Positions 4,525 through 48,619 of a DNA stretch of 64,000 bases are shown one piece after another. The notes beneath the pieces were generated by a model. It was not told the origin of the DNA, searched no databases, and was given only the letters and a program-made list of their open reading frames with translations. The stretch lies in IMG/VR virus record IMGVR_UViG_3300021255_004000, positions 160,001 through 224,000 of that record; one strand, given 5' to 3'. Both the position numbers and the translations under genes were made by a program. Numbering within the stretch: position 1 is the stretch's first letter; each line of letters opens with the position of its first letter. Source of the DNA: a virus. Its lineage: Duplodnaviria; Caudoviricetes.

Positions 4525-4544
4525 TCTATCATTTTAATACCTTT

Positions 4545-4573: not shown

Positions 4574-4589
4574 GTGTTAATATATCATT

Positions 4590-5336: not shown

Positions 5337-5342
5337 TCATAC

Positions 5343-5368
5343 AAGGCAGCTAACAAGCTGCCTTTTTT
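5343..5368 (+). terminator. Intrinsic terminator followed by an ACTAATT motif
   Basis: AAGGCAGC..GCTGCCTTTTTT. Confidence 0.8.
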
Positions 5369-5373
5369 ACTAA

Positions 5374-6555: not shown

Positions 6556-6577
6556 TCGACATTGGAGGAGTTAACAA

Positions 6578-32086: not shown

Positions 32087-35017
32087 TTACAAATTAGTTG
32101 TTTGCCCAACGTTCTCGAACTGAAGTTCAACATATTCTGAGAAAGGAGTTACCTTTACTTTAACATAGATTACGAACTTACGAGCAGCTTTTGTAATGTC
32201 TGTGTTTACACCAGCAATATCACAAATTGCTTTTGTCCAAATCTTGTTTGAACCTGTTGTTCTCTTTGCAAGAATTGCTTCAACCTGAGTCTGACGAACT
32301 CCCATCCAATAATCATCAATTGGTTTCTTGATCTGCTGACGCATTACATTGTCGCGAATATCACGCTTACAAAGCAAGAACGCCATCACGTGCTCAAGGA
32401 AAGACCAATCTGTAAGATTGTTAGGATCCTGTGTTGTCTTTGATGATGTTACCATCAAGCCGTCATCAGCATTATAAACGATTGGGTTGATACCCTTTTC
32501 ATCCATAATCTTTGTTGCTGTGTCAGAGAAGTTCCAACGAGCTTTAAGAACAGCACGAGGCAACTGACCGCCCATATCATTGTAGTTGTACCAAGCTGGA
32601 GGCCAACCACCCATCTTGAAGTCGTAAATACGAGCACACATCAAACCAACATCACCAATAGGTTTCATCCAGAATGACTTACCTGTGTAAGCGTCATAGT
32701 ACTGGAACTCACCAGCGAACTGTGCTGTCTGTTTAGAGCGGCCTGTAACTGTGATTTTGCTTGGGTTTGTAAACTCAGCTTTTGTGATGTTCTTTGGAGA
32801 AATTGCAATAGCAAGTTTGTGAGTCATAACCAAAGATGCGTGCTGTGTGTGAACAAACTCTTCACCAGTTGGGTCCATAAAGATGAATACATCGTCATAC
32901 TGAGAATCAAATGCTTCTGTCCAACCCTGCTTTACAACCATCTGGAACTCGTCACGCCAAGAACCACCTGTTGTGCCGTCTTTGATGTTCTGTTCAACTG
33001 CGTATGTTACATAACGCTGACCTTTGAGTTTGAGGTCAAATGTTGTAGGAACCAAAGTACCTGTCAAGTCGTATGTCAATTTGTCATCAACGATACGAGT
33101 ACCTGTGTAGATACCGTGTGAGTCAAGATCATCATCAAATGTTTTGTCTGGGTGGATTTCGATAAATGACATATCGTCGTCGTTCAAAACATTTGGCCAA
33201 TAAATATTTGCACCGTAAGAATCTTTACCCTTTTCATTGAAAGAACCAGTGAACTCACCACCGTTCATCATTTCACCAGGGTAAACTTCCTCAGTTACTT
33301 TGAAAGTCATTGTGTTGAAGTTGATGTCCTTCTTCAAAGGATAGTTTTCATCATCTTCTTTCTCAATCTGGAAGTTGCTTGCAGATACAACATACAAGAT
33401 TTCGTGGTCGATCTGAAGTGATGTTGTATTTGTAGGTGTGATTCCTATTGCTTTACCATCATTCATTGAAACAATGTAATCGCCGTAGATAAGCAATGAC
33501 TGTGTTTCATATGCTTCACCAACATCTGTACAAGTTTTTGCCAAAGTTGTCAAAGATTCTTCTGCATCAGCATTGTACTGATAAAGTTTGAGTTTCTTTG
33601 AAACAGCTTTTTCTTCCGGCATAATTGGTGTTGTGCCATCATATGATACTTCGCAGTACAAGAACAAGTTGTCATCGTTGTTGAAGTCAATTTCGTTGAG
33701 CAAGTCACGAGAAACTTCCTTGAGCTTAGGACCATAAATTACAGGAACAGCAACATCATATAACCACTTATCGTAACCGATAGAAGAAATAGAAACATTT
33801 GTTGTTACTTCAGCAGCAGATTTCTGAACAATGTAACCGTATGAGTAAGGTTTAACATTGAGCAACCAAGTAATTCCCTGATAGCGGTTTACTGGTGATG
33901 TATAAGATTCAGCTGTTGTGTAAGCTGTCTTGTTTCCTGTAGCAGCATCAGTTACAACAAACTCAACATTGAAGAACTTGCTTTCGTCAAAGTCAGCAGT
34001 TGATGTTTCTTCACCTTCTGTTGAAGTGTTTGTTACAGTAAGTTTGTTACCACTTTCGAGGTAAGCAACAACTTCACTCCACTTAGGAGCTTTGCTTCCG
34101 CCGTTTGCAACCAAGTTTTCAATGTTTGTGAACAAGTCAGTCAATGTCAAAAGTGGTGCATCTGTGTTTTCGTATGTGTTTGTTGAAGTAGCCTTGATAC
34201 CAAGGTTTTCAAGTTCTTCAAGAACTGCTGTCTGAGTTGTCAAGCTTGAGTTTGCCAAAATCCAAGAGTTACCGCCAATGATAACTGAGTAAGTACCGTC
34301 TGCAGCCTTTACCCAAACACCACAGTAATAATCTGTAACTGCTTCATCTTCTGAGTTTTCAACATACAACTTGTGGTCAGTTTTGTTTACAGAGTAGTAG
34401 TATGTACCTTCATTAAATCCTGAAGTTTCATCACCCCAGTAGTTGATACCAATTTCCTGAATTGAAGCCCACTGTTTTGCCTGAATACCTGTAATGTAAA
34501 GAGCGATGTTGTCTTTTGTACCGTCAATCTTTCCACCAACAGCATAACCACTTGAGCCGCCAACACCTTTAGGATTTACAATAACATTTACAGTTGTCTT
34601 TTTGTAACCCTGTGCATCCTCAAATCCAACCTGAACCATCTGTGTGTAGTCGATAACATCTTTACCTGTTACATTGTAGAAGTCGATAAGACCTTTTGAT
34701 GTAATGTAAGCGCCACCGAAGTAAGATGGGTACTTTTTAGATGAACCTGCAGGAGCAGAAACATACAAACCATATTCCTGATTGAAAGCTTCAGCTTCAT
34801 AAAGATCAGGCCAGTTTGCTGTTGGGACACCAATCATTGCGTAAATGGCTGTCATATTGCCCTTTTCGAAGTAGTATGGACTTGTTTCTCCTTTAGGAGC
34901 ACGAACTACCATATAACCTTTGATAGTTGAGCTCTCTGTTGATACAGAGAAAGAAGAGTCAATGTCAACGAAAAGCAAACGCCAAGAATTCTTTGAACCC
35001 ATTGAATATCTCCTCAT
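32087..35017 (-). CDS. Contractile tail sheath protein with a large central insertion
   Basis: C-terminal WPPAW..MGG, MDEKGINPI, KTTQ, FVIYVKVKVTPFSEYVELQF typical of sheath proteins; 976 aa. Confidence 0.8.
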   Translation of the reverse strand: MRRYSMGSKNSWRLLFVDIDSSFSVSTESSTIKGYMVVRAPKGETSPYYFEKGNMTAIYAMIGVPTANWPDLYEAEAFNQEYGLYVSAPAGSSKKYPSYFGGAYITSKGLIDFYNVTGKDVIDYTQMVQVGFEDAQGYKKTTVNVIVNPKGVGGSSGYAVGGKIDGTKDNIALYITGIQAKQWASIQEIGINYWGDETSGFNEGTYYYSVNKTDHKLYVENSEDEAVTDYYCGVWVKAADGTYSVIIGGNSWILANSSLTTQTAVLEELENLGIKATSTNTYENTDAPLLTLTDLFTNIENLVANGGSKAPKWSEVVAYLESGNKLTVTNTSTEGEETSTADFDESKFFNVEFVVTDAATGNKTAYTTAESYTSPVNRYQGITWLLNVKPYSYGYIVQKSAAEVTTNVSISSIGYDKWLYDVAVPVIYGPKLKEVSRDLLNEIDFNNDDNLFLYCEVSYDGTTPIMPEEKAVSKKLKLYQYNADAEESLTTLAKTCTDVGEAYETQSLLIYGDYIVSMNDGKAIGITPTNTTSLQIDHEILYVVSASNFQIEKEDDENYPLKKDINFNTMTFKVTEEVYPGEMMNGGEFTGSFNEKGKDSYGANIYWPNVLNDDDMSFIEIHPDKTFDDDLDSHGIYTGTRIVDDKLTYDLTGTLVPTTFDLKLKGQRYVTYAVEQNIKDGTTGGSWRDEFQMVVKQGWTEAFDSQYDDVFIFMDPTGEEFVHTQHASLVMTHKLAIAISPKNITKAEFTNPSKITVTGRSKQTAQFAGEFQYYDAYTGKSFWMKPIGDVGLMCARIYDFKMGGWPPAWYNYNDMGGQLPRAVLKARWNFSDTATKIMDEKGINPIVYNADDGLMVTSSKTTQDPNNLTDWSFLEHVMAFLLCKRDIRDNVMRQQIKKPIDDYWMGVRQTQVEAILAKRTTGSNKIWTKAICDIAGVNTDITKAARKFVIYVKVKVTPFSEYVELQFENVGQTTNL

Positions 35018-35048
35018 CTGAGTCCAAAGACTCAGCTTAATTTTTATA

Positions 35049-35110
35049 AATTAGTTTTGCACGCTGAAAAAGATTCAGATGAAAAAATCACAAAATTTTT
35101 TTAACTAATT
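35049..35110. promoter_or_regulatory. Back-to-back class III (ACTAATT, probably late) motifs for the sheath and holin-like genes
   Basis: ACTAATT at 35049-35055 (-) and 35104-35110 (+). Confidence 0.6.
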
Positions 35111-35129
35111 TTGATGGGGTTGTAAGTAT

Positions 35130-35426
35130 ATGATAAGCTTAAGAGAAATAGCAGACAACAAAAGTGATATCTCCTCAACAAGATGGGCGTTTGGCTTAAT
35201 TATAATGTTTGATATTATCATCATTACATTAAGTATTGCTGCATTTCTTGTTGCACACTTTATTGGTATGCCACTTGATGGATCATTCTTTGGATATGTT
35301 GCAACTCTTCTTGGCGTTGTAACAACTTTAGTAACGACAGGAAAGGCACTTCAGGGTTTTGAAACAAAACACGATGACAAGCAGAAAGATGAAAAGGTCG
35401 AACCTGAAGCAATAGAGGAGAAATAA
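35130..35426 (+). CDS. Two-TM membrane protein, holin-like
   Basis: SSTR motif, two hydrophobic helices, charged C-terminus. Confidence 0.5.
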   Translation: MISLREIADNKSDISSTRWAFGLIIMFDIIIITLSIAAFLVAHFIGMPLDGSFFGYVATLLGVVTTLVTTGKALQGFETKHDDKQKDEKVEPEAIEEK

Positions 35427-35429
35427 TTA

Positions 35430-35450
35430 AAGGCGGCAATTTGCCGCCTT
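35430..35450. terminator. Bidirectional terminator
   Basis: AAGGCGGCAA T TTGCCGCCTT between convergent genes. Confidence 0.75.
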
Positions 35451-35453
35451 ATT

Positions 35454-36506
35454 TTATTTATTCTTTTTCTTAAACATTTGATATTCGGACCACCAACGAT
35501 ACCATTCTTTGAACCGCTGTATAGGTGTTAATGGTCTCCAGCCACTTTGCATAATTTGATATAAGTCTTCACAAACAGGACAACGCTTTGCATTCTCAGG
35601 ATGTGACTGATGCCATCCAGGTGTTATTACTTTTTCAAAATATTTTGGGTTGTCGCTGCTTGCATAGTACTCATCATCAACAAGCCAATTGTGTTTTGAC
35701 TTACATCTCCACCAATGTCCTTGTTCCTGATTGCTTCGATTGACTTCTTCCCAAGTACCGCGTACAAAAGGCTTTTCCCACATTTCATCAAATGATTTGT
35801 AAGTGCCTTCAGGATAACCAAGTTGTTTAACTGCTGCTTCCCATTCTTCTTTGTTATAGAAAGTCAACATACTGTTTTCCCAATCTTCACAACTGGAATA
35901 GTCAATGCCTTTGTAAGAAAAGTGGCGCATTACTTCAGGATCATCTTCAAACTTTCGAACATAGCCAATGTCAGGATTGCTTACCCACGAATAGTTGCAG
36001 GCTTTGCATTTCCAATCGTACATTTCAAGTTCTGGGTCCCAAATTGCTTTTGATACCAACTTTCTTTTGTTGATATATTTCCAGAGTTTCTTTGCTTCAC
36101 GAGGATGCAAATACTTTTCACATTTGTAAAACTCAACTTCTTTATTGCTTTTCGGACCAACATAAGTACAAATTGGAATAACGCCGTGTGGTGTCATAAA
36201 TGACTCAAACTTTATTTCACGAGTTACATAGCCAAAAAGACATTTGATACTGTAATGCTGACCTTCAATGTAAGGAACTTTTTGATTAACAATAAGATGT
36301 CGATCTTCTCCATACCAAATAAGAACATCAATAGTGCCATCTCTTAAAAGGCCACACTGAACAATGACATCTTTTTCAGAAAACATTTTGACTTGATGAA
36401 TATGTTTGTTGCACCAAAAGTCAAAATGAAGCCATTCATTATCAACATAAAGTGATGGTTTATTCTTCATTGTTCTCTCCTGTAATTGACTTGTTATATT
36501 TTTCAA
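35454..36506 (-). CDS. Hypothetical Trp/Cys-rich protein
   Basis: 350 aa, CKAC and CPVC. Confidence 0.6.
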   Translation of the reverse strand: MKNITSQLQERTMKNKPSLYVDNEWLHFDFWCNKHIHQVKMFSEKDVIVQCGLLRDGTIDVLIWYGEDRHLIVNQKVPYIEGQHYSIKCLFGYVTREIKFESFMTPHGVIPICTYVGPKSNKEVEFYKCEKYLHPREAKKLWKYINKRKLVSKAIWDPELEMYDWKCKACNYSWVSNPDIGYVRKFEDDPEVMRHFSYKGIDYSSCEDWENSMLTFYNKEEWEAAVKQLGYPEGTYKSFDEMWEKPFVRGTWEEVNRSNQEQGHWWRCKSKHNWLVDDEYYASSDNPKYFEKVITPGWHQSHPENAKRCPVCEDLYQIMQSGWRPLTPIQRFKEWYRWWSEYQMFKKKNK

Positions 36507-36996
36507 TCCAAGGCTGCTTTACAATTTTAACACCCATCTTTTCAAGTACAGGATATGAAGAGTACAAGTCACTTTCCTGAATTACCCAACCTTCCTGCAT
36601 CCAATATGCAATAGTTTGAACAAAGTACTCACTTGCATAATGCTTAAGCAGCTGTTCAAATCTGTTCTTAAGATGTTGAGTGTACAACTTCCAAGGAAAT
36701 ACTGCAACCATTGAAACACCTAAGTAAGGCGCTCTAAAAATCTTATTCCATTCGTCAACACATACATTACGAAAACTTTCATAAAGATCGTGATGTTTCC
36801 AGAATGCTTCAGGAACATAGCCTATTTCACAAATGTAATCATAGGCCTCAAGAAGTTCACCATAGGTGTTCTCATTCAAACCAATCAAAACACCAGTGAT
36901 TCTTCTTCCTTCTTTTCGTGAGTTAACTAATACTGCATTAACGCGGTTGTGTAGCCCGCTTGGATTCTTATGTGCCATAACATGTGCGGGAATCAA
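36460..36996 (-). CDS. Hypothetical protein
   Basis: 178 aa. Confidence 0.55.
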   Translation of the reverse strand: MIPAHVMAHKNPSGLHNRVNAVLVNSRKEGRRITGVLIGLNENTYGELLEAYDYICEIGYVPEAFWKHHDLYESFRNVCVDEWNKIFRAPYLGVSMVAVFPWKLYTQHLKNRFEQLLKHYASEYFVQTIAYWMQEGWVIQESDLYSSYPVLEKMGVKIVKQPWIEKYNKSITGENNEE

Positions 36997-37024
36997 GTTC
37001 CCGCTCTATTCAAAAGCTTTGTGA

Positions 37025-37690
37025 TTACTTAGGCTGTTTCGGAATGGCCTCGCAATACTCCAAAGCATCAACTGGGGTTATTGCCATCTTTTGCAGTGCA
37101 GCGATACCCATCGCGTGACTTGATAAATCCCAATAATGGTTAAGTACACGGTCAACAAATACTCTGCAATCTTCATTTTCATCAAGGTTCTGTTTGTTTC
37201 TGTTCTGAAATCTTTCCAGCAAGTCAGGCACTTTGACGCAAAAGATTGACATATGATTATTGAAGTAAGCAGGGTTTGGGTTGAAGGTACCAAGAAGTCC
37301 GACTCTTTCTTTGTACGGTCCGAGGTCAATCCCTGTCTCCTCTTCAAACTCGCGAATGGCGGCGTTCTTTCTAACCTCTTTAAGAGCGTCGTCATAACCT
37401 TCAAGCGGAAGATCTTTCATTTCAGAGTCTTCCACTGTACCGCAAGGGAACTCAATAGTTTTTGCTTCTGCACCCCAGCGTGTCTGTTCAACAAAAACGC
37501 AAACAGGATTTTCTCTTGAACTTGCGTCTGCAGCTATCAACATACACCAGTCGTTACAATTCAAACCAACAGGCTTGAAGTTTGGAACATTGTCAAACTC
37601 CTTCTCTACAACGGTAAAGACGGGTGTTTTCATTTTTGTAGTTTCTTTAGTCTTTTTTAGCATTTTTCGCATTCTCCAAAATTGTACCAA
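37025..37690 (-). CDS. Nudix hydrolase, ADP-ribose pyrophosphatase-like
   Basis: VEQTR..IEFPCG..E, AAIREFEEETG (Nudix box with an insertion), PNPA, LDENE as in ADPRases. Confidence 0.8.
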   Translation of the reverse strand: MVQFWRMRKMLKKTKETTKMKTPVFTVVEKEFDNVPNFKPVGLNCNDWCMLIAADASSRENPVCVFVEQTRWGAEAKTIEFPCGTVEDSEMKDLPLEGYDDALKEVRKNAAIREFEEETGIDLGPYKERVGLLGTFNPNPAYFNNHMSIFCVKVPDLLERFQNRNKQNLDENEDCRVFVDRVLNHYWDLSSHAMGIAALQKMAITPVDALEYCEAIPKQPK

Positions 37691-38150
37691 GCAGTTTTAC
37701 ATCGTCAATCTTTTTGAGGTCTTTTCCAACATCCTCAGTTGCAAGTAAACGAGCGCTTTCATATTTCTTATTGTACTTATAAGCTTCTATGTAATCTTGA
37801 ACTGTTGGATATTCAAGAGCTTCATACTTTGTAATCATTTCTTGATTGTTTTTGATAAAGCTTTTTGCATCAAATACCATAGTTGCAAAAGCCAATGCAA
37901 ATATAAAACCAAACAAGCAAACAATGCATCTTATTGTGAAAAATGTCCAATACCAGAGATGCTGCCACCATTCATCTGCATAGCCCATTACTAATGCATC
38001 ACGCAACTTTCGAATGATTCCATCAGATTTTGTTTTATCTGACCAATAAACTCTTTCAAAAATGAAAGCAATCAAATGATGGATTCCAATCAACGCCAGA
38101 CCAGGGATAATCAGGAAACAAAAAACCCCGATAATCAAACTTGTATTCAT
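37647..38150 (-). CDS. Hypothetical membrane protein (2 TM)
   Basis: Two hydrophobic segments. Confidence 0.6.
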   Translation of the reverse strand: MNTSLIIGVFCFLIIPGLALIGIHHLIAFIFERVYWSDKTKSDGIIRKLRDALVMGYADEWWQHLWYWTFFTIRCIVCLFGFIFALAFATMVFDAKSFIKNNQEMITKYEALEYPTVQDYIEAYKYNKKYESARLLATEDVGKDLKKIDDVKLLGTILENAKNAKKD

Positions 38151-38161
38151 TTAGCCACCTC

Positions 38162-38719
38162 TTAAAGTTTGTTGTACCAGTCCGCGTCGTCCAAGTACAT
38201 TTCCATCAATTCAGATATTAACTTGTTGCGAACTTTTGAAGAACTTGCTTCCAAGAAATCTTTTCCAATGTACAATTCCTCGCAAGGAACAACTTTTACA
38301 AGGTCATCTTTGCTGTTTCCGCGCTGGACAACCATCAGAGTTGCCATAAGGAGAATGTCTTCATAGCGGAACCAAGTTGGAAAGTTTTTGTAGGAGTCTT
38401 CGCCGATGATAAGATATAATTCATCATTAGGATACTGTTCTTTGAAGTACTGAACTGTGTTGATTGTACGCCACTTGCTGTCTTTATCTTTTTCAAGGCT
38501 GTCAATTACAATGTTTCCAGGCGCATTTGAAATCATCTTTGTAATGATTGCAACCTTTTCATCGAAAGTAAACAACTTTCTTGAGTCAGGTCGATAGTAA
38601 TCACAAATCGTTGGTACGATGATTACCTTGTCAAGTTTCTTTGCAGCTTCAACTGCGATTTTCAAATGTCCCTGGTGGAACGGGTCAAATGTACCACCAA
38701 AAATTCCAATCTTTGCCAT
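38162..38719 (-). CDS. nadD: Nicotinate-nucleotide adenylyltransferase
   Basis: GIFGGTFDPFHQGH, LIIGEDS, FPTW, ASSSKVR. Confidence 0.9.
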   Translation of the reverse strand: MAKIGIFGGTFDPFHQGHLKIAVEAAKKLDKVIIVPTICDYYRPDSRKLFTFDEKVAIITKMISNAPGNIVIDSLEKDKDSKWRTINTVQYFKEQYPNDELYLIIGEDSYKNFPTWFRYEDILLMATLMVVQRGNSKDDLVKVVPCEELYIGKDFLEASSSKVRNKLISELMEMYLDDADWYNKL

Positions 38720-38932
38720 TTACTTTGCTCCTTTTGGATATCTGAACAACCAATCAGCACCGCCATCCATAAAGATTGACATTGTGTCGATTTCAAATCC
38801 TCGTTTCTTTATTTCGTTGTATTCTTCTTCAGTCAAACGACCACGGTAAGAACCGTAGGCAGGATAATGTTCAACTGCATAAACCAACGCTTTTGTCAAT
38901 TCATCTCGAAGTTTCATTATCCTGCCTCCGAC

Positions 38933-40240
38933 TTATTTCTCGTAAGTCATACGCCAGTCAATTTCCTTGTGCAGTCTTTCGATTGCTTCAGGATTGCGGC
39001 ACATATTCTTTCCAGGTGCATCAGAAAGTTTTGCAACATCCAAGCCGTTTACGATTGCAACCTTGCATACGATATTCAAAGCTTCAATTCCCTGAGGACC
39101 TGACCAATCAGTTCCGATACCGAATGCAACCTTTGCCTTGCCTTTGAAGTACTTATTGATTTCAGTTGCCTTCTGAAGATTGAGACCGTCACTGAACATC
39201 AGAGTTTTTGTAAGAGGGTCAATTCCCAAGCTCTTGTAATGGGCAATCATTTTGTCACCCCAAGCGTAAGGATCTCCAGAGTCGTGGCGTACACCGCTGA
39301 ACAAAGTTGCAAATGTTTTGCGGAAGTCCTTCAAGAAAACATCTGTTCCGATTGTGTCAGTTAAGGCGATACCGTTCATTGTTCCGTATTCTTTAACCCA
39401 AGCATCAAGTGCGAACCAGTTGCTGTAAGCAGGGTTGTGGTAGAGGTGTCCCTGGCCGACTGTCATAATGAACTCGTGAGCCATTGTACCAACGGCGGTA
39501 ACACCGTACTTCATTGCAAGATACATATTTGATGTACCGATGAAGCCCTGGATAGGTCCGATTGCATTGTGCTTTTTCTCTTCGACAAGGCGGCCAATCA
39601 ACCAATCCTGAAGTTCAAAAGAAACGCGGCGGCGGGCACCAAACTCTGAGAAGATGCCAGGTGCAAAAATGCCTTCGCGCATAAAGCGGAGCTTTTCTTC
39701 AGTCTTTTCTTTGAATTCTTTTGCAAGCTTTTCGTAATCATAGTGATTGCGGTAGTATGTTTCTGCGGCGATTTCGAGAACAGGAATTTCGTAATCTGAG
39801 ATTTTCCACTGAACACCTTTTGTGTGAATTGCGAGTCCTGAGATAGGATCATCACCGATTTCAAAGTCTTCAAAATGAGGCTTCCAATCGCGTTCAACTT
39901 CAATAAAGTTGTTGTGAATCCAAGGACGGGTTGCAGGATCTCCAAGGAAAGCGAGTTCCTCTTCTGTGTAACGAAGTGCGCAGTAAGCGCGGATCTGATT
40001 TGTAATTTCTTCACGGTCAGCAGCAGTGTACTTTTCGTGAGATGCAGCATCCCCGACATTGCGAGCCTTGAAGTCCCAAGTTGCGTGATCACCACTGAAC
40101 TGATGCAAGTAAGCCTGTTTCATTGACTTCTTGTACTGATCTGTATCAAGCGGTGACTTGACCATAGGCGGATATTTCAAATTAAACGCCTTCATAACAA
40201 CTGACTCATCGTCAGTCAACTTACCATTGATTTCCCACAT
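38933..40240 (-). CDS. pncB: Nicotinate phosphoribosyltransferase
   Basis: LDTDQYK, SEFGARRR, GTSN, GTMAHE, ALTDT, GVRHDSGDP, FSDGL, FGIGT, KLSD..GK. Confidence 0.92.
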   Translation of the reverse strand: MWEINGKLTDDESVVMKAFNLKYPPMVKSPLDTDQYKKSMKQAYLHQFSGDHATWDFKARNVGDAASHEKYTAADREEITNQIRAYCALRYTEEELAFLGDPATRPWIHNNFIEVERDWKPHFEDFEIGDDPISGLAIHTKGVQWKISDYEIPVLEIAAETYYRNHYDYEKLAKEFKEKTEEKLRFMREGIFAPGIFSEFGARRRVSFELQDWLIGRLVEEKKHNAIGPIQGFIGTSNMYLAMKYGVTAVGTMAHEFIMTVGQGHLYHNPAYSNWFALDAWVKEYGTMNGIALTDTIGTDVFLKDFRKTFATLFSGVRHDSGDPYAWGDKMIAHYKSLGIDPLTKTLMFSDGLNLQKATEINKYFKGKAKVAFGIGTDWSGPQGIEALNIVCKVAIVNGLDVAKLSDAPGKNMCRNPEAIERLHKEIDWRMTYEK

Positions 40241-40257
40241 ATAGGAATACCTCCAAA

Positions 40258-40742
40258 TTATTTGTATCTTGGTTCGTTCATTACGAACAACTGTTTTCTA
40301 AATTGATTTAAGACAACTTCTCTTGCTTCATCATTCAAGCCATAAAGCAATGAGCCTGCTTTTTTAGTGCACCAGTCATCAATAAAGTCTTCTTTTTCTT
40401 CAACGGAGTTTACAACATCGAGAAGTTCATCTCGATCTGAACCATTGTAATCTTCATCCCAATAGATGTAAAATTCCATTTTAGGCCTCCTTAGAAAATT
40501 CTTATTGTTTTTGACAAGTCAAAAGCCAAAACTTCATTTCGAACTGAGTATGATGAACCATCCTGAGTATCAGCTTCTACAGAATAGTTTCCATAGCCTG
40601 CCTCGATCATTTCATTCAAAAAGTCGCGCAATTCTGTTACAGTCAATTCAGACTTTTCAGAAACACCTGAAATGTTGTTTGCATATACTTTTTCATCACC
40701 TATTGTTTCATAAGTCCATTTTGATGTTTCTTTCTTCAACAT
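40258..40742 (-). other. Two small acidic hypothetical genes (40258-40479, 40491-40742)
   Basis: RBSs, directly downstream of class I promoter copy 6. Confidence 0.6.
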
Positions 40743-40766
40743 AATTTGCTCCTTTTGTTTAGGTTT

Positions 40767-40805
40767 TTACAAATATAATATAAAAGAAAACTTGCGGGAG
40801 TTCAA
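40767..40805 (-). promoter_or_regulatory. Class I promoter, copy 6 (upstream of the pncB-nadD-Nudix run)
   Basis: TTGAAC-N17-TATATT..TGTAA; its -35 overlaps the TGCGGGAGTT..AACTCCCGCA hairpin after nadE. Confidence 0.8.
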
Positions 40806-40827
40806 AAACTCCCGCATATTTTATGAA

Positions 40828-41574
40828 TTATTTTTCTGGGTCAAAAACATCGAAGACGACAAGTTTCTTTGCTGTGTTCGGGTGATTGTGCATTCTGTCA
40901 ATCATTTGCTTTGTTTCAAAATCTTTAGGCGGAATTCCATAACGGATGTACCTGTCAAGTGTATCATAAGAAAAGCCCAGGTTGTCTTCGTCGGTTTTGC
41001 CGCACATTCCATCAGAAGGAACTTTGTGAGTCCACTTCTCGCTGATGCCAAGGTAATCTCCCAAAGCGACAACTTCAGTTTTTGTCAACTTTGCAAGAGG
41101 AGAGAAGTCGCCAGTTGCATCGCCCCACTTTGTGCTGTAACCAACATAATCTTCAGAGAGGTTGCAAGTGTTTACAACGCGGCCATTAACCGCAGCAGCA
41201 ATTCCATACAATGTTGCCATACGAAGGCGGGCAGGAGTGTTTGTAGTAAAAACTTTACATTCATTCAAGTCTTTACCAATGTTGATTGCATCGAACAGAG
41301 CGTTATATGCAGTACCAATGTTTACTGTAATAGGCTCAACCCCAAACTCTTTACAAATGTCGATACTGTCCTGAATGTCTGCCTGTGTACCATTCGGCAT
41401 AAGAACAGGAACAACACGATCTTTACCAAGGTATTTGATACCAAGCTTCAAGCAAACTGTGGAATCTTTTCCACCACTTACACCGATAACCATCGGCGAA
41501 TCTTTTCCGTTTTTCTCAAACCAATCTTTGAACCACTTTTCAAGTTTAGGCTCAAAATCTTTAGGATCCAACAT
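40828..41574 (-). CDS. nadE: NH3-dependent NAD+ synthetase
   Basis: GVSGGKDS, NTPARLRM, NLSEDYVGYSTKWGD, KTEV, PSDG, DEDNLG. Confidence 0.92.
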   Translation of the reverse strand: MLDPKDFEPKLEKWFKDWFEKNGKDSPMVIGVSGGKDSTVCLKLGIKYLGKDRVVPVLMPNGTQADIQDSIDICKEFGVEPITVNIGTAYNALFDAINIGKDLNECKVFTTNTPARLRMATLYGIAAAVNGRVVNTCNLSEDYVGYSTKWGDATGDFSPLAKLTKTEVVALGDYLGISEKWTHKVPSDGMCGKTDEDNLGFSYDTLDRYIRYGIPPKDFETKQMIDRMHNHPNTAKKLVVFDVFDPEK

Positions 41575-41753
41575 TTAATGACCTCCAAATCCAATCGTAG
41601 GGATTACATCATAGCATCTTACAATATAACCATTTTTGCGAAGTTCAGCAGCAACTGCAATCATTGCGTCTTCGTTTTCTGTAATGCCTTGACATACAGT
41701 GTTGCCGTCTTTATCACGAGCGACAACTCTGTACTTTGTTACTGCAATACTCA

Positions 41754-42263
41754 TTAGCGAATGTTGCACTGGCAGCATTCCATAACTTTCAATGCAGCCT
41801 CGTGGCTCTCCTTTGTAAGTCCGGCGCAGCAGTCAGCAATAACTGTTACTTCAACGCCTTCGATTGCCTTAAGAGCAAGCGCATTACTGACAACGCAGAT
41901 GTCGGTACAAGTTCCGCAGATAACAACTTCATCGCCTTCTTTGACATATTCTGTCCAGTTGTCAAAACCGAAGTGAGTCTTGTCAATGAAGAGAGTGTTT
42001 TCATCAGTCTCTTCCATAAGTTCAGGAACAACCTGCCAGCCTTCAGTGTCTTTTACGCAGTGCTTTACAGGAAGATGCTTTCCTTCGCCTGTTTCCATAT
42101 AATTTTCACCGTGTGTATCACGAGTGAAAATGATGTTTGCTTTTTCAGCCTTTGCTGCCTGAACCTCTGCTTTAATGCGAGGAATGATTGCAACTGCATC
42201 TTTGTTTGCAAGAGCTCCTGTGCAGAAGTCATTCTGCATATCAACAACAACGAAATGTTTCAT
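41754..42263 (-). CDS. pncA: Nicotinamidase (isochorismatase family)
   Basis: VVDMQNDF, TRDTH, HC, DKTHFG, GTCTDICV. Confidence 0.85.
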   Translation of the reverse strand: MKHFVVVDMQNDFCTGALANKDAVAIIPRIKAEVQAAKAEKANIIFTRDTHGENYMETGEGKHLPVKHCVKDTEGWQVVPELMEETDENTLFIDKTHFGFDNWTEYVKEGDEVVICGTCTDICVVSNALALKAIEGVEVTVIADCCAGLTKESHEAALKVMECCQCNIR

Positions 42264-42832
42264 TATTTACCTCCAATGATTTCATTCAGTGTTTTTGGTC
42301 CCCACTCCATAGCAGGGCACATAATACCAACATTGTACATTTTGACTTCGTGGCCGACAACATCTTCGTAATCTTTCTTCCACTTTTCAATCATATCACA
42401 GTCGTGCGGATTTGTATGCACGTGACCGTAAAGGTGAACAGTATGACCGTGATAAACACCATCGAACATAAAGATCGGATAGTGTGAAAGAATTACAGTG
42501 TTGCCTGCGTTGTCGATATGTTTGTGGTAACCTTCGTACACATCAACAAACTGTCTGCGAAGTTCTTCGTTCTTCCACAACTTATAGTCGTGGTTGCCTG
42601 TAACCCAATGCTTTTTGCCGCGAAGGCGAGCAATCAAGCAGCGTGTTTCATAAGGATTTGTCCAAGAAATATCACCAAGAATCCAAACATCGTCTTCATC
42701 TGAAACGCGTTCATTCCAAATACGAATGATTGCTTCGTTCATTTCGTTAATGTCTTTCCAAGGACGATTGTCAAAATTGATTGCATTTGCGTGTGAGAGA
42801 TGCAAATCTGAAATATAAAACTCTTTACCCAT
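42263..42832 (-). CDS. Calcineurin-like metallophosphoesterase
   Basis: SDLH, LGD, GNHD, SHYP, HLYGHVH, NVG; stop overlaps the pncA start. Confidence 0.85.
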   Translation of the reverse strand: MGKEFYISDLHLSHANAINFDNRPWKDINEMNEAIIRIWNERVSDEDDVWILGDISWTNPYETRCLIARLRGKKHWVTGNHDYKLWKNEELRRQFVDVYEGYHKHIDNAGNTVILSHYPIFMFDGVYHGHTVHLYGHVHTNPHDCDMIEKWKKDYEDVVGHEVKMYNVGIMCPAMEWGPKTLNEIIGGK

Positions 42833-42847
42833 AATTGTATATTAACC

Positions 42848-43587
42848 TCAGTACTCTTTCAGCTTTTCTTCCAATGCAGATTTTGCTTTCAATTCTTCAA
42901 AGTTGTCAGGTGTAATAACAACACAATGAATGCAGTGGTCAAAGCCTTCAACTTTCTTATCAAAGCAATGTCTGTTGCCTGACTTAATCTGCTTCTTTGT
43001 TACGAAACAGCGATGTTTTTCGCAATAGCAGGCAAGGTTTTCTTTGTACCCAATCCCGTTGTTTAATGTCAACACATAATCTTTTTTGTATTCAGGATTA
43101 AACTTAAGATCGTTAAAGTCCATTTTTAGTCCTCCTTTATCAGATTGTAGCCGCCGTCAACCCAAGTAATGTTTCCATCAACTCTTGAAAGTCCCTGTGC
43201 GCCGTCAATGTCATATACATAATCGACCAATTTGTCAAGGTCGAATGCATTTCTTGGAAAGTTGATGAAACCATATTCATCAGTAAGCTTTTCAACAATT
43301 TCGTTATCAGAGAGATCAGAGAATGTATCACTGTCTTCGATACGGAAGTCGTTGATGTAAACCTCATCGAAGAAGTTGATTAAGCCGCCGTTGTCAGCAA
43401 CAAACTTGTTCAAGCTTTCATCAGAGTAATCATTTTCAAAAAGCTCTCTGATATCTTTGCGAGCTGCTTCCTCAAGTTCGTCATCATCGTAGCATTTGTA
43501 AGTGTCCCCGTTGATAGTGAAAGTTGTATCATCGATCTGCTCGATGTCACCTTCATATTGATTCTTTAGGGCTTCAAGCTTATCCAT
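42848..43587 (-). other. Two hypothetical early genes (42848-43123, 43126-43587 very acidic)
   Basis: GGAGG RBSs, downstream of class I promoter copy 7. Confidence 0.6.
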
Positions 43588-43607
43588 AGTTTCCTCCTTT
43601 GAGTTTG

Positions 43608-43646
43608 TTACAGTAATAATATAAAAGACTTTAACTCAAAGTTCAA
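43608..43646 (-). promoter_or_regulatory. Class I promoter, copy 7
   Basis: TTGAAC-N17-TATATT..TGTAA. Confidence 0.8.
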
Positions 43647-44403
43647 TAAAAATCTGCAACTTCTTCAATTTCCCAAGTATTATCATCAATGTCAATTCTT
43701 ATAATAAAATGCAACTTGTCAGTTGACATTTCATCTGTCAAATTATAATCATATACATAAGGTCGGCTGTCCCAATCAAGAAGGTACATACCTACACTGT
43801 AATCGTGAACATTTTCATCAGAGTTTTTATGGAAACGAGTAACGATTCGCCAGCATTTATCGCCAACTTTCCATTCATTTACGCCTCTGTAATTTATTAC
43901 ATCAAAATGTGTCTCAAGATCACTGAATGAAATGTTTGCTCCAAGATAATTGTTGATTGCGGAAAAGATTGCTGACTCATCTACGGAACGCCATAAAGTG
44001 TTTGAAGGTATTTCGCCTTTCATTCAAAAAATCTCCAAGTGTCGTCATCATAAAGAACAATCAAAACATCACTTCTGTCAATAACACCTTCATTCTTAAG
44101 TCTTGTTTCCAATATGTCAGGAGCGTTTTCAGACTTATAAAGATTGAAGAAAGCGTGAAACCTGTTATCGGTTCCACCAAGTGACGTGACAACTATAACC
44201 CAAACAAAGTTTTCATCTTCACTCCAAAGTCGAAAAAGATAGCAACCGTTGTTGAAGAAGTTGGAAGCATTCTTTCCAAGTTCAATGGACTTACCAAGAT
44301 AGTCACTAATTGCTGCTATCATAAGATTATACATTTTACTAGTCAAAGATGGACACCTCCTTTCCATCAAAGTATGTTGGGTCAATGTCGAGAACTTTTT
44401 CAA
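43643..44403 (-). other. Tandem paralogous hypothetical genes (43643-44023, 44020-44403)
   Basis: Shared AI..YLG..I and DD.TW motifs. Confidence 0.55.
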
Positions 44404-44495
44404 ACCACTCTTTGAAGCCTTTGTAAGATGGATTGTGGAAGTTGGTTCTCATCCAACATTTGATTCTTAATGTCAGACGTTCTTCGTCAGTCATA

Positions 44496-45233
44496 TTACA
44501 GTCCCCAAGTCAGTTTCTTATTCGGATTGTTTGTACGAATTACAATAAGCTTTCTAGGTGACTTGTTGTTTACAGTTTCAGGCTCGATTGATGTTACAAC
44601 AAAAGGAACCATCCAAGTTTGATTCTGATACATTACAACATCTCCAATCTCAATAGGAACATTGTAACGATCTTTGTGAACGACAGCAGCAATCTTCTTT
44701 TTATAAACATCTTCAGTCATCTTGATGTAGGCAGCAGATGTTTTGAAGTCATAGATGTCATAATTAAGATTCAGCAACTGATTGAAAACCAAACGAGCAA
44801 CTTCATTGCTTTCCACATCGACATATGTGTAGTCATCTTCACTGAATGAGATCCACTTCATTGTAATTTTATCAACAGTGATGAAGTCATCTTCAGAGAT
44901 TGTAAATCTTCTTCCGCTCCAACTGTTATAAGAGTACTTCCCAGGCTCGCTATAATCTTCATAGAAGTCTTTCTTAGGAATGTAATCATTTCCTGATTTG
45001 TAAACTTTTACGCTGCTTTTTGAAAATGTGTACAAAATTGGCTTTTCATAATTTTCATCATACTTGCCGCCAAGGTCAATATCCAACTGATCTGGGCAAC
45101 TTGGTAAGGCAAGATTTTCTCCAATGACTGAAGTTGTCCAGTACCTTACTTTGTCGCCGTTTGCTTTTTCCTGAGCAACACTAGTAAATGCTTTTGGGTC
45201 AATATAAACTGCCTGTCTTATCATTTTTACCAC
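44496..45233 (-). CDS. Hypothetical protein (paralog of the 25333-26058 C-terminal domain)
   Basis: DRYNVPIEIGDVV...PNKKLTW. Confidence 0.65.
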   Translation of the reverse strand: MVKMIRQAVYIDPKAFTSVAQEKANGDKVRYWTTSVIGENLALPSCPDQLDIDLGGKYDENYEKPILYTFSKSSVKVYKSGNDYIPKKDFYEDYSEPGKYSYNSWSGRRFTISEDDFITVDKITMKWISFSEDDYTYVDVESNEVARLVFNQLLNLNYDIYDFKTSAAYIKMTEDVYKKKIAAVVHKDRYNVPIEIGDVVMYQNQTWMVPFVVTSIEPETVNNKSPRKLIVIRTNNPNKKLTWGL

Positions 45234-45921
45234 TCCACTTTCATAAGTTCTGGGCCTTCATCTGCTCCGCAAACCCATCTTACTTTAAATCCTTTATCTT
45301 CAAAAGCTTTTGTCATAAAGTTTTCAAACTCTTCAACTTCGCTTTTTGTTGCTTTGTGTTTCCATATTTCTTGGAAATCAATTTCTGCGTTATTGTTTCC
45401 AAGATGAACAGCTGTTGCAATTAGAGCTGACATCTTCTTAAAGGACCCTTTGCGAAATCTTTCCAAATCTTCCGCATGCATTTTGTCAATATGTTCTCTT
45501 GCTTCTGATGCAGTAAACTGTTGGTTATCATACCTATGTTCAAGCAAGCTGACTAAACCAAGCGACGCAAAGAACAATAAAACTACTAAAATAATTATAA
45601 TCATATTTGTAGGTGTAACCTCCATATTACCAATCGCCCAAGGCCAAATCATTGTCAATCTCCTATCTTGGCGTTCGATGTCAATACAACATCAGGATTG
45701 TGCTCTTCAAGCGGCTGAATGAATGAAATGAAAACGCTTTCAGGAACATACCCAGTGTTGTCTTCAATCGCTTCCCTAATCACTGTCTTAAATGATTCCA
45801 TTGTTTCCCAGGACATTTCAATATGATCACCAGAAGTTTCACTTTCAATTCTCAGATCTCCGTGGCCTACACGACCACCTGAAAGATAGAAAACATACGA
45901 AACATAAAACAGTTTCTTCAT
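45227..45921 (-). other. Two hypothetical genes (45227-45658 TM-anchored, 45655-45921)
   Basis: Overlapping start/stop packing. Confidence 0.55.
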
Positions 45922-45922
45922 A

Positions 45923-46750
45923 TTAAGCCTCCATCATTTTGTAAAACTCTTCATATGTAATTGTTGCAATTCCGAGTTTCTCAGCCTTAACCATTTTTGC
46001 TGTTCCTGTTTCTGATGATACGAGGTATGAAAGTCCTTTCTTTACGCTTTCAACAGTTCCGCCAAGTTCAGCAACTTTTTCCTCGAGAAGTTTTCTTTTC
46101 TCTTCAGGCTTGAAGTCGTTTGAACCTGTGAAGCAGAATGAAAGCCCAGAAAACTTTCCACCTTCAACAACTTTTGCTTTATCTTCGATTGAAACAAGTT
46201 TGTAGCATTTTTCAATGTCTTCTTTGTTTTCAGCAATAAGGCTGACAAGTTCTTTTGCAGAGTTTTCAGTCCAGCCGTAAACATTTGCAATTTCAGGAAC
46301 AATGTTTAAGCCGTTTACAAGTTTCTGAAGATCAAAGCCTGCATCAACCAAAGACTGAATTGATCTTCGTCCATAACCATCAAGGTCAAATGATGCAAGG
46401 AAGTCAGCAGTTTTGAAAGGCTCTGCCATACGCTTTGCAAAGTTGCGGCGAATCTTTTCTGCATTTTTACCGCAAACATTGTCCAAAGAAGGACTGTTCA
46501 ATTTTGTAAGGAATTCATAGTTTGATGTGATGTTTTCTGCTTCGACAAAATCCTTAATGATAGCAGGTCCGATCTCAAGGACATTCCAAATGTTTGTCAA
46601 TTTTTGGATTTTGTGAAGTACTTTCTGTTCACAGGTAGGATTCGGGCAAAAAAGAACACCCGATTCATTTATTTCGAGAGCTGTCCCGCATACAGGACAG
46701 ATTGTAGGCATATTCCATTTATGTGATTTTGCGTATTCTGCGGCGTTCAT
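45923..46750 (-). CDS. ligA: NAD-dependent DNA ligase, C-terminal half (Zn finger, HhH, BRCT)
   Basis: PTICPVCG...LFCPNPTC Zn finger; EIGP, GYGR, GWTE HhH-like turns; GLSFCFTG..GG.V..SV..LSYLV...K..KAEKLGI BRCT. Confidence 0.88.
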   Translation of the reverse strand: MNAAEYAKSHKWNMPTICPVCGTALEINESGVLFCPNPTCEQKVLHKIQKLTNIWNVLEIGPAIIKDFVEAENITSNYEFLTKLNSPSLDNVCGKNAEKIRRNFAKRMAEPFKTADFLASFDLDGYGRRSIQSLVDAGFDLQKLVNGLNIVPEIANVYGWTENSAKELVSLIAENKEDIEKCYKLVSIEDKAKVVEGGKFSGLSFCFTGSNDFKPEEKRKLLEEKVAELGGTVESVKKGLSYLVSSETGTAKMVKAEKLGIATITYEEFYKMMEA

Positions 46751-46770
46751 AAGTTCCTCCGTTGTTCAAT

Positions 46771-46809
46771 TTACAAAAATAATATAAAAGAACAACGGAG
46801 AAAGTTCAA
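46771..46809 (-). promoter_or_regulatory. Class I promoter, copy 8 (ligase C-half)
   Basis: TTGAAC-N17-TATATT..TGTAA. Confidence 0.8.
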
Positions 46810-46816
46810 AAATATT

Positions 46817-48619
46817 TTATGCTACTTTGAAATAATTACAAATTGCATCATTTACACTAGAAATAAGCGCAAGGTCTTCTGGTGTTGTTTGTGACTTGTC
46901 TGAAACAAAACATTTATATTTCAAGCATTTTGTAACGAAGAGAGTGAACATCATTCTCTTTTTAAGGCCTTTGTCCAAACCATTTTTGAATGCAGAAATA
47001 AGTCTTATTACACAGTTGAAAGTATAATCAGCGCCTGGGCCATTAACATAATCGAGATATTCCTTAGTCAACTGATTGTATTCATCAAAAACTTTAATTA
47101 AGTTTCCACCACCAACAACACCTTCTGTCAAAGCTTCCAAGGCAGACATTGCTTCACCACATTTTCCACCGAAGCCTTTATCACCAATTTCAAGTTCAAG
47201 TTGTCCATCACCTTTTGTACCATCTGCTTTAATTGAACTCATTGATACCTTAAGACGAATACCTGGGATGCCATCAATCTTTGGCAAGTTGTCTTTATTG
47301 ATTTGCAAATCGTGATAGCCTGCTTCAGTCAATGTAAAGAATGGACGAACTCTTGAATATGAAACATTTCCGTCTTTCTCTTTTCCAGGGAGAGCCTTTA
47401 CAATATAAAGATCATCAATAGTTGTTTTATCTGAGAACTCTCCAGCGTAAACGCCAGCGACGTGACTTGTGTATTGAGAGAGTTTGTCATAAATCTTGAG
47501 TTCTGAGAATTTCACGTGTGCAGGACCTTTAGGAACTTTTTTCAATGAGATCGGCAAAATCCAACCCATAATTGTACAGATGTTCATATTGTAAATCAAA
47601 GACTGCTTTCTTTTTGAAAGTTGGTCTTCAGCAACATTGTCATCATCTGAAAGTAACTGCATTCTCAACATCTTAACTCTTTGTTTTCTTGTACCTGCTT
47701 TACCTTTAATAGCAGTAAAGTGATCATCATCTTTCAAGAAGTTGTCATACTCTGTTGTCTTAAATGAACCAGCACGGTTGTAAATCTTTTCGAGTTTTGA
47801 CTCATCATTTTCAGCATAAGCAGCAGCAGGAACTTCACCATATCTTAAAGCTTTATAAAGTTCGTCTTCGTGCTCACTGTCAACTAAGAAAATATCTGCA
47901 GGTTGAACATTGTCTTTGTTGCTCAAACCATAAGAACGATCATCAAACAAAAATCTGAAGTCGTGTTTTCCAAGTGGCTTCAAAAACTCGTGAACAGGAA
48001 TCCAATGTACATCTTTTGTTGCAGCTCTTGTATGCATCATACATTCTTTAATGATTGTATAATTTGAACAAGCAAGAATTGAGTTGTTCCACTCTTTGTT
48101 ATATACAACAGCATCAATAGTTGCTTGTGCAATAGGTACTGTTTTTGAAAGACCTTGATTATCAAAGTAATCAAGAAAGCCCTTAGTGCTTTTTGCTTTA
48201 ATACTTACATAAATATCTTCTTTACAGCAAGCAAGAGCAGTAAGTCCTTCCTGAACAGCTGTTATGCTGTTTGCCTCAAGGCCTGAGGCTTTGTCAGCTT
48301 TACAAAATCCTTTCCAAACGCCCCATTCATTCTTTTCACCAATATCAACGCCAATGCTCTTAAGTAATTCACCAAGTTTATCAACTGCTTCAGGTGAAAC
48401 AATGGTAGGGAGATTTTCTACTTCATCAACAATAGAACTTGCATCAATAATAACAGGTTCTGCGTCATCGCCATCTCTTGTATCAACATATCCTTTTTCA
48501 ATTATGTTGTTTCTTAAAGTCACATAGTAAGCGCCTGAATGCTTAGTCAGCAACTCGCTTCTTTTAACGTGTTGCTCTTCAATCTTTATAAGATTTTCAA
48601 AAAATAATTCCATTCCCAT
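46817..48619 (-). CDS. Hypothetical 600-aa protein, possible PD-(D/E)xK-like fold, probably late
   Basis: QE, PADIFL and ISLKK motifs; ACTAATT at 48625-48631. Confidence 0.5.
   Translation of the reverse strand: MGMELFFENLIKIEEQHVKRSELLTKHSGAYYVTLRNNIIEKGYVDTRDGDDAEPVIIDASSIVDEVENLPTIVSPEAVDKLGELLKSIGVDIGEKNEWGVWKGFCKADKASGLEANSITAVQEGLTALACCKEDIYVSIKAKSTKGFLDYFDNQGLSKTVPIAQATIDAVVYNKEWNNSILACSNYTIIKECMMHTRAATKDVHWIPVHEFLKPLGKHDFRFLFDDRSYGLSNKDNVQPADIFLVDSEHEDELYKALRYGEVPAAAYAENDESKLEKIYNRAGSFKTTEYDNFLKDDDHFTAIKGKAGTRKQRVKMLRMQLLSDDDNVAEDQLSKRKQSLIYNMNICTIMGWILPISLKKVPKGPAHVKFSELKIYDKLSQYTSHVAGVYAGEFSDKTTIDDLYIVKALPGKEKDGNVSYSRVRPFFTLTEAGYHDLQINKDNLPKIDGIPGIRLKVSMSSIKADGTKGDGQLELEIGDKGFGGKCGEAMSALEALTEGVVGGGNLIKVFDEYNQLTKEYLDYVNGPGADYTFNCVIRLISAFKNGLDKGLKKRMMFTLFVTKCLKYKCFVSDKSQTTPEDLALISSVNDAICNYFKVA

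Follow-up and report, generated by a model that had tools for sequence, protein, structure and literature searches.

A phage gene cluster encoding a putative nicotinamide-to-NAD+ recycling route of the Preiss-Handler type

Gene content of the cluster

The DNA analysed here (the window) is a stretch of 64,000 nucleotides from a virus of the Caudoviricetes (IMG/VR record IMGVR_UViG_3300021255_004000, positions 160,001 to 224,000), and its minus strand carries, between 37025 and 42832, genes for a metallophosphoesterase, a nicotinamidase (PncA), an ammonia-type nicotinamide adenine dinucleotide (NAD+) synthetase (NadE), a nicotinate phosphoribosyltransferase (PncB), a NadD-type adenylyltransferase and a Nudix hydrolase resembling ADP-ribose pyrophosphatases (ADPRases), with the catalytic motifs intact in all of them. 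We consider it likely that these genes form a phage-borne, probably transcribed Preiss-Handler route that recycles nicotinamide to NAD+ and would sustain NAD+ during infection. An earlier sequence-only reading of this DNA had recognized four enzymes with intact motifs, a Nudix protein and a phosphoesterase on one strand, which is confirmed by family searches, motifs and the minus-strand open reading frames (ORFs) of this region (Table 1). Every gene from 35.4 to 43.6 kb lies on the minus strand, in two units: unit 1 reads orf153, orf91, phosphoesterase, PncA, orf67, NadE and a strong terminator, and unit 2 reads orf83, orf73, PncB, orf65, NadD, a 167-aa membrane ORF, Nudix, orf178, orf350 and a terminator. 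For comparison we used three close relatives, namely L001 (a 61.5-kb IMG/VR contig), L003 (a 306-kb contig in a 'Ca. Fimenecus' metagenome-assembled genome, MAG) and L035 (a 295-kb NCBI assembly).

The best solved relatives of the phage PncA are P. horikoshii PncA (1ILW, E 1e-16) and M. tuberculosis PncA, and the alignment with 1ILW keeps the catalytic residues D8, K95 and C123 as well as the metal-site residues D49, H51 and H68; the protein reaches the cut-off of no NCBIfam PncA model. PncB passes curated NCBIfam cut-offs (TIGR01514, 343.5 versus 269.55 bits; NF003704, 386.6 versus 379 bits) but on phrog_448, the phage Nampt family, reaches only 43 bits. The adenylyltransferase carries the motifs GGTFDPFHQGH and SSSKVR, with (H/T)xGH and SxxxxR kept in its relatives; NadD-type models score it at 86-128 bits, and those for NadM and NadR at about 25 bits. 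NadE is well above its curated cut-off (TIGR00552, 154.9 versus 63.65 bits), matches phrog_11189 (E 2.5e-52) and has the SGGKDS P-loop. The order of reactions put forward in the sequence-only reading, from nicotinamide to nicotinate, nicotinate mononucleotide (NaMN), nicotinate adenine dinucleotide (NaAD) and NAD+, fits these predicted families and motifs.

The best PDB match of the phage NadE is 3FIU (E 1.3e-32), which we take to be the NadE of Francisella tularensis. This match favours another order of steps, in which the NadE homologue would amidate NaMN to nicotinamide mononucleotide (NMN) and the adenylyltransferase would then make NAD+ from NMN, as the enzyme of F. tularensis acts as an NMN synthetase and is only marginally active as an NAD synthetase (PMC3376133). 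However, P. horikoshii NadE (2E18) scores nearly as well as 3FIU, the single-domain NadE of M. jannaschii was tested in a section headed ammonia-using NAD synthetases (PMC3376133), and the closest natural relatives of the phage gene are short NadE genes beside PncB in Ruminococcus. Moreover, the Francisella order pairs with a NadM that replaces NadD (PMC3376133), whereas the phage protein is of the NadD type by the model scores given above. The Francisella-like order thus appears very improbable, and we retain the order through NaAD.

The stop codon of the phosphoesterase gene overlaps the ATG of pncA within TAATG, and the two genes are translationally coupled, as had been claimed from the sequence. 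Against the PDB the phosphoesterase matches 1XM7 (aq_1665, E 9e-9), and its metal-binding-type residues D9, H11, D54, N80, H81, H137 and H139 are all invariant. An AlphaFold2 (AF2) model with a mean predicted local distance difference test (pLDDT) score of 93 has 1XM7 as its best fold match (TM 0.72), followed by LpxH, Ap4A hydrolase, YfcE and Mre11, which do not fix the substrate; Aq_1665, the sole close structural relative, has no assigned function. The adjacency of phosphoesterase and PncA is kept in L001 and L035 and absent from distant phages.

Table 1. Features of the NAD gene cluster and its flanks in the window.
Feature	Coordinates	Strand	Basis
orf153 and orf91, small genes heading unit 1	42848..43587	minus	ORFs with Shine-Dalgarno sites
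Calcineurin-type metallophosphoesterase, 189 aa	42263..42832	minus	phrog_547, E 3e-35
PncA, short-form nicotinamidase, 169 aa	41754..42263	minus	Pfam PF00857 (Isochorismatase), 115 bits
orf67, small ORF overlapping the end of pncA, doubtful gene	41575..41778	minus	ORF list
NadE, single-domain NH3-dependent NAD synthetase, 248 aa	40828..41574	minus	PF02540, 160 bits
orf83 and orf73, small genes heading unit 2	40258..40742	minus	ORFs with Shine-Dalgarno sites
PncB, nicotinate phosphoribosyltransferase, 435 aa	38933..40240	minus	PF04095 (NAPRTase) and PF17767 (NAPRTase_N)
orf65, small gene	38720..38917	minus	ORF list
NadD-type nicotinate-mononucleotide adenylyltransferase, 185 aa	38162..38719	minus	PF01467, 70 bits
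ORF167, predicted two-helix membrane protein between NadD and Nudix	37647..38150	minus	translation
ADP-ribose-pyrophosphatase-like Nudix hydrolase, 212 aa	37025..37663	minus	PF00293, 27.5 bits
orf178, orf350 and terminator 35430-35450	35430..36996	minus	ORF list
Promoter P1, ahead of unit 1 (TTGAAC-N17-TATATT with extended CTTTTATATTAT box)	43618..43646	minus	repeated motif
Promoter P2, same class, ahead of unit 2	40777..40805	minus	repeated motif
Intrinsic terminator of unit 1	40793..40816	minus	10-bp stem, 6 GC pairs, then T-run

Conservation in other phages and origin of the genes

Megablast found no match to the region among 50,697 phage records. L001, L003 and L035 share the six-gene set, at 48-81% identity, and because these six genes recur while the genes between them turn over, their grouping is not due to chance. 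In L035 the phosphoesterase, PncA, NadE, PncB and NadD are contiguous; the Nudix gene adjoins NadD in L001 and L003 and lies three genes away in L035. The window PncB shares 75-81% identity with those of L001 and L003. The L035 PncB (6568-7773) is 56% identical to it, with neighbouring genes at about 70-75%, and in the PncB tree the window, L001 and L003 form a subclade on a long stem (0.73); this divergence and the long stem suggest fast evolution or gene replacement. L001 and L003 have a gap of about 3.8 kb between NadE and PncB, where L001 encodes an adenylosuccinate-synthetase-like protein (6279-7361; PF00709, E 1e-13).

The five core genes also recur in distant jumbo phages. A distant 265-kb phage (L027) has a compact operon of PncB, a 403-aa NadD::Nudix fusion (6305-7516), NadE and PncA, situated near phiKZ-like internal head protein genes, and a second fusion of 399 aa is found in L028 (6338-7537). 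An exhaustive HMMER search of 1.84 billion proteins returned about 45 full-length NadD::Nudix representatives (clustered at 50% identity), and members of the family of the window's stand-alone Nudix match the Nudix half of these fusions. The genomic context was looked up for two of them, one of which adjoins PncB, the other lying on a contig of less than 2 kb. As a side observation, the fusion proteins (P0242-P0285) make up a family of about 365-450 aa with an ADPRase/NudE-like Nudix half, distinct from NadM-Nudix and often encoded beside PncB. Among cultured phages, Sinorhizobium phage Phosso encodes NadE, PncB, a MutT-like Nudix, an adenylyltransferase and a PncA-like 'hydrolase' within 6 kb, and phage Atu_ph07 encodes an ADPRase, a PncA-like protein and PncB. 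The cluster, for which the sequence-only reading had called for a survey of phage genomes, is found again in L001, L003, L035 and L027, and most of the set in Phosso and Atu_ph07. In a 461-kb phage with PncB and NadE (L002), genes for a Macro-domain protein and a factor of the sigma-70 family lie nearby (5603-6121 and 6183-7028).

In the PncB tree the gut phage clade stands beside Clostridia PncB, L002 groups with Bacteroidota and the rhizobial phages stand apart; because phage PncBs fall in such separate places, phages have acquired this gene independently at least two to three times. The bacterial operons found include L007 (NrtR-PncA-PncB-NadD-NadE, 304-5405) and L010 (NadE-NrtR-PncA-PncB, 3778-7242), which come from MAGs of gut Lachnospiraceae and Ruminococcus, and Clostridia operons of this type are likely the kind of source from which the phage genes came. 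The resemblance (PncB is 54-56% identical to Clostridia genes) and the filing of the L003 contig in a 'Ca. Fimenecus' MAG could be taken as signs that the cluster itself is bacterial DNA, a mis-assembled or mis-binned host operon. This is hardly credible: the phage-like flanks are rich in ORFans and include a phage PolA, a ligase in two parts and several copies of a phage promoter, IMG/VR contigs of 61-461 kb and an assembly of 295 kb hold the same genes, and the bacterial operons carry an NrtR, which the phage lacks. The window as a whole looks like DNA of a large uncultured phage: many of its ORFs lack a family match, and it encodes a DNA polymerase of family A, a nuclease of the beta-CASP type and one half of a ligase, with the adenylation and OB domains. 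Gene similarity and one MAG bin point to Clostridia as candidate hosts of the phage whose cluster is described here.

The ADPRase-like Nudix hydrolase

By sequence alone the Nudix protein is poorly resolved, its Pfam score being weak and its match to solved ADPRases non-significant (E 0.41). Its ORF is listed as 37025-37690, and we place the start at the ATG at 37663 because homologues align there. The family comprises at least 114 homologues of about 180-210 aa with the invariant motifs EFPCGTVE, AAxRExxEETG, FNPNPAYFNN and LDxxEDC, the REx2EE helix being invariant as well; short members have a canonical Nudix box, and in the window copy about 19 aa are inserted into the loop of this box. A profile scan of viral contigs with the family alignment, which is not a census, found at least three loci. 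An AF2 model built on the family alignment (pLDDT 88.5) was searched against the PDB with Foldseek, and the top 50 of 50 matches are ADP-ribose or nucleoside-diphosphate (NDP)-sugar pyrophosphatases, including Klebsiella and E. coli NudF, NUDT5, YffH and Ndx4, so that the ADPRase-like character claimed from the sequence is borne out by the modelled fold. In an hhalign comparison with E. coli NudF (probability 78.5%), LDENEDC aligns with the stretch of loop L9 that holds E162 and E164. The equivalents of NudF E164 and D165 are invariant in the family; that of E162 is Glu in the window protein and variable across the family. The protein is likely to be an ADPRase by activity, but this is not assured because the E162 equivalent varies.

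The same variable residue speaks for a different role, in which the Nudix protein would hydrolyse NAD(H), NAD caps or another ADP compound and thereby brake or regulate the output of NadD, as proposed for NadM-Nudix. The Nudix domain of NadM has been suggested to regulate NAD+ levels (Iyer et al., PMC9503650), and the Nudix half of the NadD::Nudix fusions scores best on the NudE model, named 'ADP compounds hydrolase'. Yet the top 50 structural matches are all ADP-ribose or NDP-sugar pyrophosphatases, the NudF loop L9 motif aligns and no NADH-pyrophosphatase NCBIfam model matches at E <= 0.01, and we regard such a brake as unlikely and prefer the ADPRase assignment.

A complex prediction for NadD and Nudix (score 0.00 versus a mark of 0.32) speaks neither for nor against binding. 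A word-index search for longer, fused forms of the window Nudix returned none at E <= 1e-5, which is weak evidence. An origin of the phage Nudix from NrtR was considered and rejected, as the protein has no NrtR_WHD match and does not significantly resemble NrtR of L007 or L010.

Promoters, terminators and RNA contigs

An 18-base extended promoter motif of sigma-70-like type (TTGAAC, 13 bases, CTTTTATATTAT) occurs in nine exact copies in the window, as against 0.24 expected, all of them on the minus strand (2873, 16400, 22457, 23998, 27924, 40805, 43646, 46809 and 54778), with TGTAA and a strong Shine-Dalgarno site downstream. The P1 copy precedes orf153 and heads the genes from orf153 to NadE, the P2 copy, situated between the terminator of NadE and orf83, heads those from orf83 to Nudix and beyond, and the copies at 22457 and 46809 precede the two halves of the phage ligase. 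In the NAD cluster of L035 the motif stands at the two matching places, ahead of unit 1 and between NadE and PncB. A general sigma-70 scan barely beat shuffled sequence (36 found versus 29 expected), and only the extended repeated motif is meaningful. The unit-1 terminator begins 12 nt past the NadE stop, and the terminator at 35430-35450 (nine pairs, six of them GC) probably closes unit 2.

Gut metagenomes of sheep and cattle, from 12 studies, contain the stretch, as do six metatranscriptome runs. Positions 40846-43597 and 37819-40766 are covered by rumen RNA contigs assembled in two or three studies, whose ends fall within about 10-20 nt of the predicted transcription starts and at the terminators. 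Contigs end near P1 at 43597 and 43598 (two studies), near P2 at 40766 and 40750, and at the terminators at 40846 (unit 1) and 35429 (unit 2); ends about 10-20 nt downstream of the promoter motif were seen for three of its nine copies. Gaps between RNA contigs, such as 43822-44222, were not counted as evidence. The RNA consists of assembled contigs only, at 90-99% identity (mostly 90-95%), for which DNA carry-over is possible, and because of this identity it concerns relatives more than the phage of the window. We take the contigs that end at unit boundaries as a weak hint of transcription as predicted.

Proposed pathway and its likely benefit to the phage

In the proposed pathway, PncA would deamidate nicotinamide to nicotinate, PncB would join nicotinate with host-made phosphoribosyl pyrophosphate (PRPP) to give NaMN, the NadD-type enzyme would adenylylate NaMN to NaAD and the single-domain NadE would amidate NaAD with ammonia to NAD+. 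The ADPRase-like Nudix, functionally tied to NadD, would split ADP-ribose into AMP and ribose-5-phosphate, which host PRPP synthetase (Prs) could turn back into PRPP. The NAD+ pool would thus stay up during infection, independent of host regulation, and would both supply NAD+ consumers of the phage and buffer it against NAD+-cleaving abortive infection. The claim that no PRPP synthetase is visible in the window holds, since tblastn with E. coli Prs gave a best E of 1.5, and the suggested search beyond the window, for which the 306-kb contig of L003 served as proxy, found no Pribosyltran_N match on that contig.

The phage NAD-dependent ligase, also named in the sequence-only reading, is present in the window by a Pfam match to its adenylation and OB domains (21330-22394). 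It is apparently split, with a second gene at 45923-46750, both on the minus strand; the halves lie 23.5 kb apart with the NAD cluster between them, and the L035 homologue of the second gene carries a BRCT domain. Such a consumer allows the module to be read as pure metabolic supplementation, serving a host with weak NAD synthesis or the ligase and other consumers, with no role against defence. The ligase is under the same promoter class as the NAD units, gut Clostridia hold the same genes as an ordinary NrtR-regulated operon, NARP2, a phage pathway discussed below, raises NAD+ even without a defence system, and phage and host NAD pathways complement each other (Li et al., PMC11662467). On the other side, distant phages retain the Nudix, in some cases as a fusion with NadD, and the MAG holding L003 has NadA, so that the candidate host is not obviously auxotrophic, a weak point as the binning is uncertain. 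Furthermore, the reaction of NAD-dependent ligases releases NMN, not nicotinamide. Because the ligase yields NMN, the conserved PncA and ADPRase fit the products of NAD glycohydrolases better, and we consider pure supplementation somewhat unlikely.

It is plausible, from the predicted families, that PncA and the ADPRase act on nicotinamide and ADP-ribose, both of them products of NADases, and hence serve against defence; the link to NADase-type defence is best argued from these substrates and from the NadD-ADPRase fusions. More tentatively, and as a possibility that we put at less than even odds, the five-gene module may be a fourth, deamidating NAD+-reconstitution pathway of counter-defence that recycles both products of SIR2, TIR and other NADases and was assembled independently in several jumbo-phage lineages from bacterial salvage operons, with the pairing or fusion of NadD and ADPRase and, in this clade, the pncA-coupled phosphoesterase as adaptations to defence-derived ADP-ribose species.

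Several points weigh against the recycling route as we propose it. The phage NadD is below all curated NadD cut-offs, if only by 0.85 bit for TIGR00482 (111.6 versus 112.45 bits), the E162 equivalent varies in the Nudix family, and the RNA contigs have the limits given above. The route would cost PRPP and about four ATP per NAD+ and would depend on host Prs. Finally, phage Preiss-Handler genes, and with them the four-step deamidating route in phages, have so far been seen only in sequence.

NAD+ depletion is among the commonest strategies of bacterial abortive infection, and three NAD+-rebuilding pathways of phages have been demonstrated to overcome it. If the present module did act in counter-defence, it would mean that phages are able to take over an entire recycling cycle from bacteria and not just a shortcut, and it would account for the joint occurrence of PncA and an ADP-ribose hydrolase with the core genes. 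The locus alone opens no new question; it is a clean example, with a defined layout of promoters and terminators, a hint of transcription in vivo and links to the NadD::Nudix fusions.

Neighbouring genes of the window

The NAD genes of the window are interrupted by orf65, orf67, orf73, orf83 and the 167-aa membrane ORF (ORF167). Searches of Pfam, NCBIfam and PHROG found no family match for orf67, orf73, orf83 or ORF167, and Pfam searches gave none for orf65, orf91, orf153, orf178 or orf350. In L035, PncA abuts NadE directly without a counterpart of orf67, and there is no called gene between NadE and PncB, where the window has orf83 and orf73; tblastn of L001 and L003 found neither of these two. 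ORF167, with no homologue in L001 or L003, is an insertion specific to the window. At the place of orf153 and orf91, L035 has genes of 158 and 91 aa, the former likened to orf153 by size and position alone, and tblastn of orf91 against the relatives gave a match in L001 only; the RNA contigs that span the phosphoesterase to NadE also cover these two genes. An Rfam scan of 35000-47000 found neither an NAD+ riboswitch nor another family above threshold. Farther away, a beta-CASP/metallo-beta-lactamase protein of 462 aa is encoded on the minus strand (29678-31066), and its L035 homologue shows a faint match to the anti-Pycsar protein Apyc1 beside RNase-J-like domains.

Comparison with known systems

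The sequence-only reading had presented the cluster as a new third, deamidating route, which does not stand. Complete Preiss-Handler clusters (pncB-nadD-nadE) were already described from the sequences of gut jumbo phages, with a role in NAD supply or counter-defence proposed by authors who state that they did no experiment (Li et al. 2024, Microbiome, PMC11662467), similar sets are present in the GenBank phages Phosso and Atu_ph07, and the name of a third pathway, NARP3, is taken by a pathway of PnuC and NadR (PMC13464706). The only viral NAD systems listed in a survey from 2022 are NadV, NadM and NadR (PMC9503650). What the locus adds is detail: PncA and the ADPRase as conserved members, the NadD::Nudix fusions, two units under promoters of the kind that also precedes the ligase genes, and an origin that looks Clostridia-like.

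Like the NAD-jumbo phages (e.g. Kuafu_71 with pncB-nadD-nadE; PMC11662467), which are uncultured animal-gut jumbo phages, the phage of the window has PncB, NadD and NadE clustered and NAD consumers in its genome. Unlike their three-gene core, for which pncA is mentioned in passing and a Nudix never, the present set has PncA and an ADPRase-like Nudix as conserved members, a phosphoesterase coupled to pncA and its genes in two promoter-driven units. The same four enzymes are found in the NrtR-regulated pncA-pncB-nadD-nadE operons of gut Clostridia (L007 and L010), which outside phages hold the nearest relatives of the window's PncB, PncA and NadE. These operons carry the Nudix-winged-helix repressor NrtR, in place of which the phage encodes an ADPRase-like Nudix that is unrelated to it and catalytically intact; the phage also has promoters of its own. 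The pairing of an adenylyltransferase of NAD synthesis with an ADPRase-type Nudix, fused in L027 and L028, resembles the bifunctional NadM-Nudix proteins (PMC3376133, ref. 12; PMC9503650), but the adenylyltransferase half is of the NadD type and in the window the two are encoded separately, on either side of a membrane ORF.

Both NARP1 and NARP2 have been shown by experiment to defeat NADase defences by rebuilding NAD+ (10.1101/2024.02.11.579819). Like NARP2 of Vibrio phage KVP40 (Nampt and Nmnat; same source), the window module would rebuild NAD+ from nicotinamide with PRPP and ATP of the host. NARP2, proven by experiment where the window module is known from its genes alone, takes two amidated steps via NMN, whereas the window would take four, via nicotinate, NaMN and NaAD. 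Its phosphoribosyltransferase is of the Nampt type and that of the window of the PncB type, and the window adenylyltransferase is of the NadD and not the NadM type, which sets the module apart from NARP2. The KVP40 adenylyltransferase also carries a Nudix domain.

NARP1 (Adps and Namat) and its extension NARP1-AP, which adds the Macro phosphatase Adpp (10.64898/2026.01.28.702374), resemble the window module in that both NADase products, ADP-ribose and nicotinamide, are used and in that an accessory phosphatase can extend the pathway. However, NARP1 rejoins ADP-ribose pyrophosphate (ADPR-PP) to nicotinamide directly, whereas the window Nudix would break ADP-ribose down to AMP and ribose-5-phosphate, the window has no Prs-like Adps, and its accessory enzyme is a calcineurin-type phosphoesterase where NARP1-AP has a Macro domain. 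NARP3, a validated counter-defence pathway of a PnuC-like transporter and a NadR-like enzyme published in 2026 (PMC13464706), imports nicotinamide riboside; neither NadR, PnuC nor NadA was found in the window, the only DNA searched for them, where tblastn of E. coli PnuC and NadR gave only a weak match to the NadD HIGH motif. What the window module would share with NARP3 is the outcome, a phage pathway that restores NAD+ (PMC13464706).

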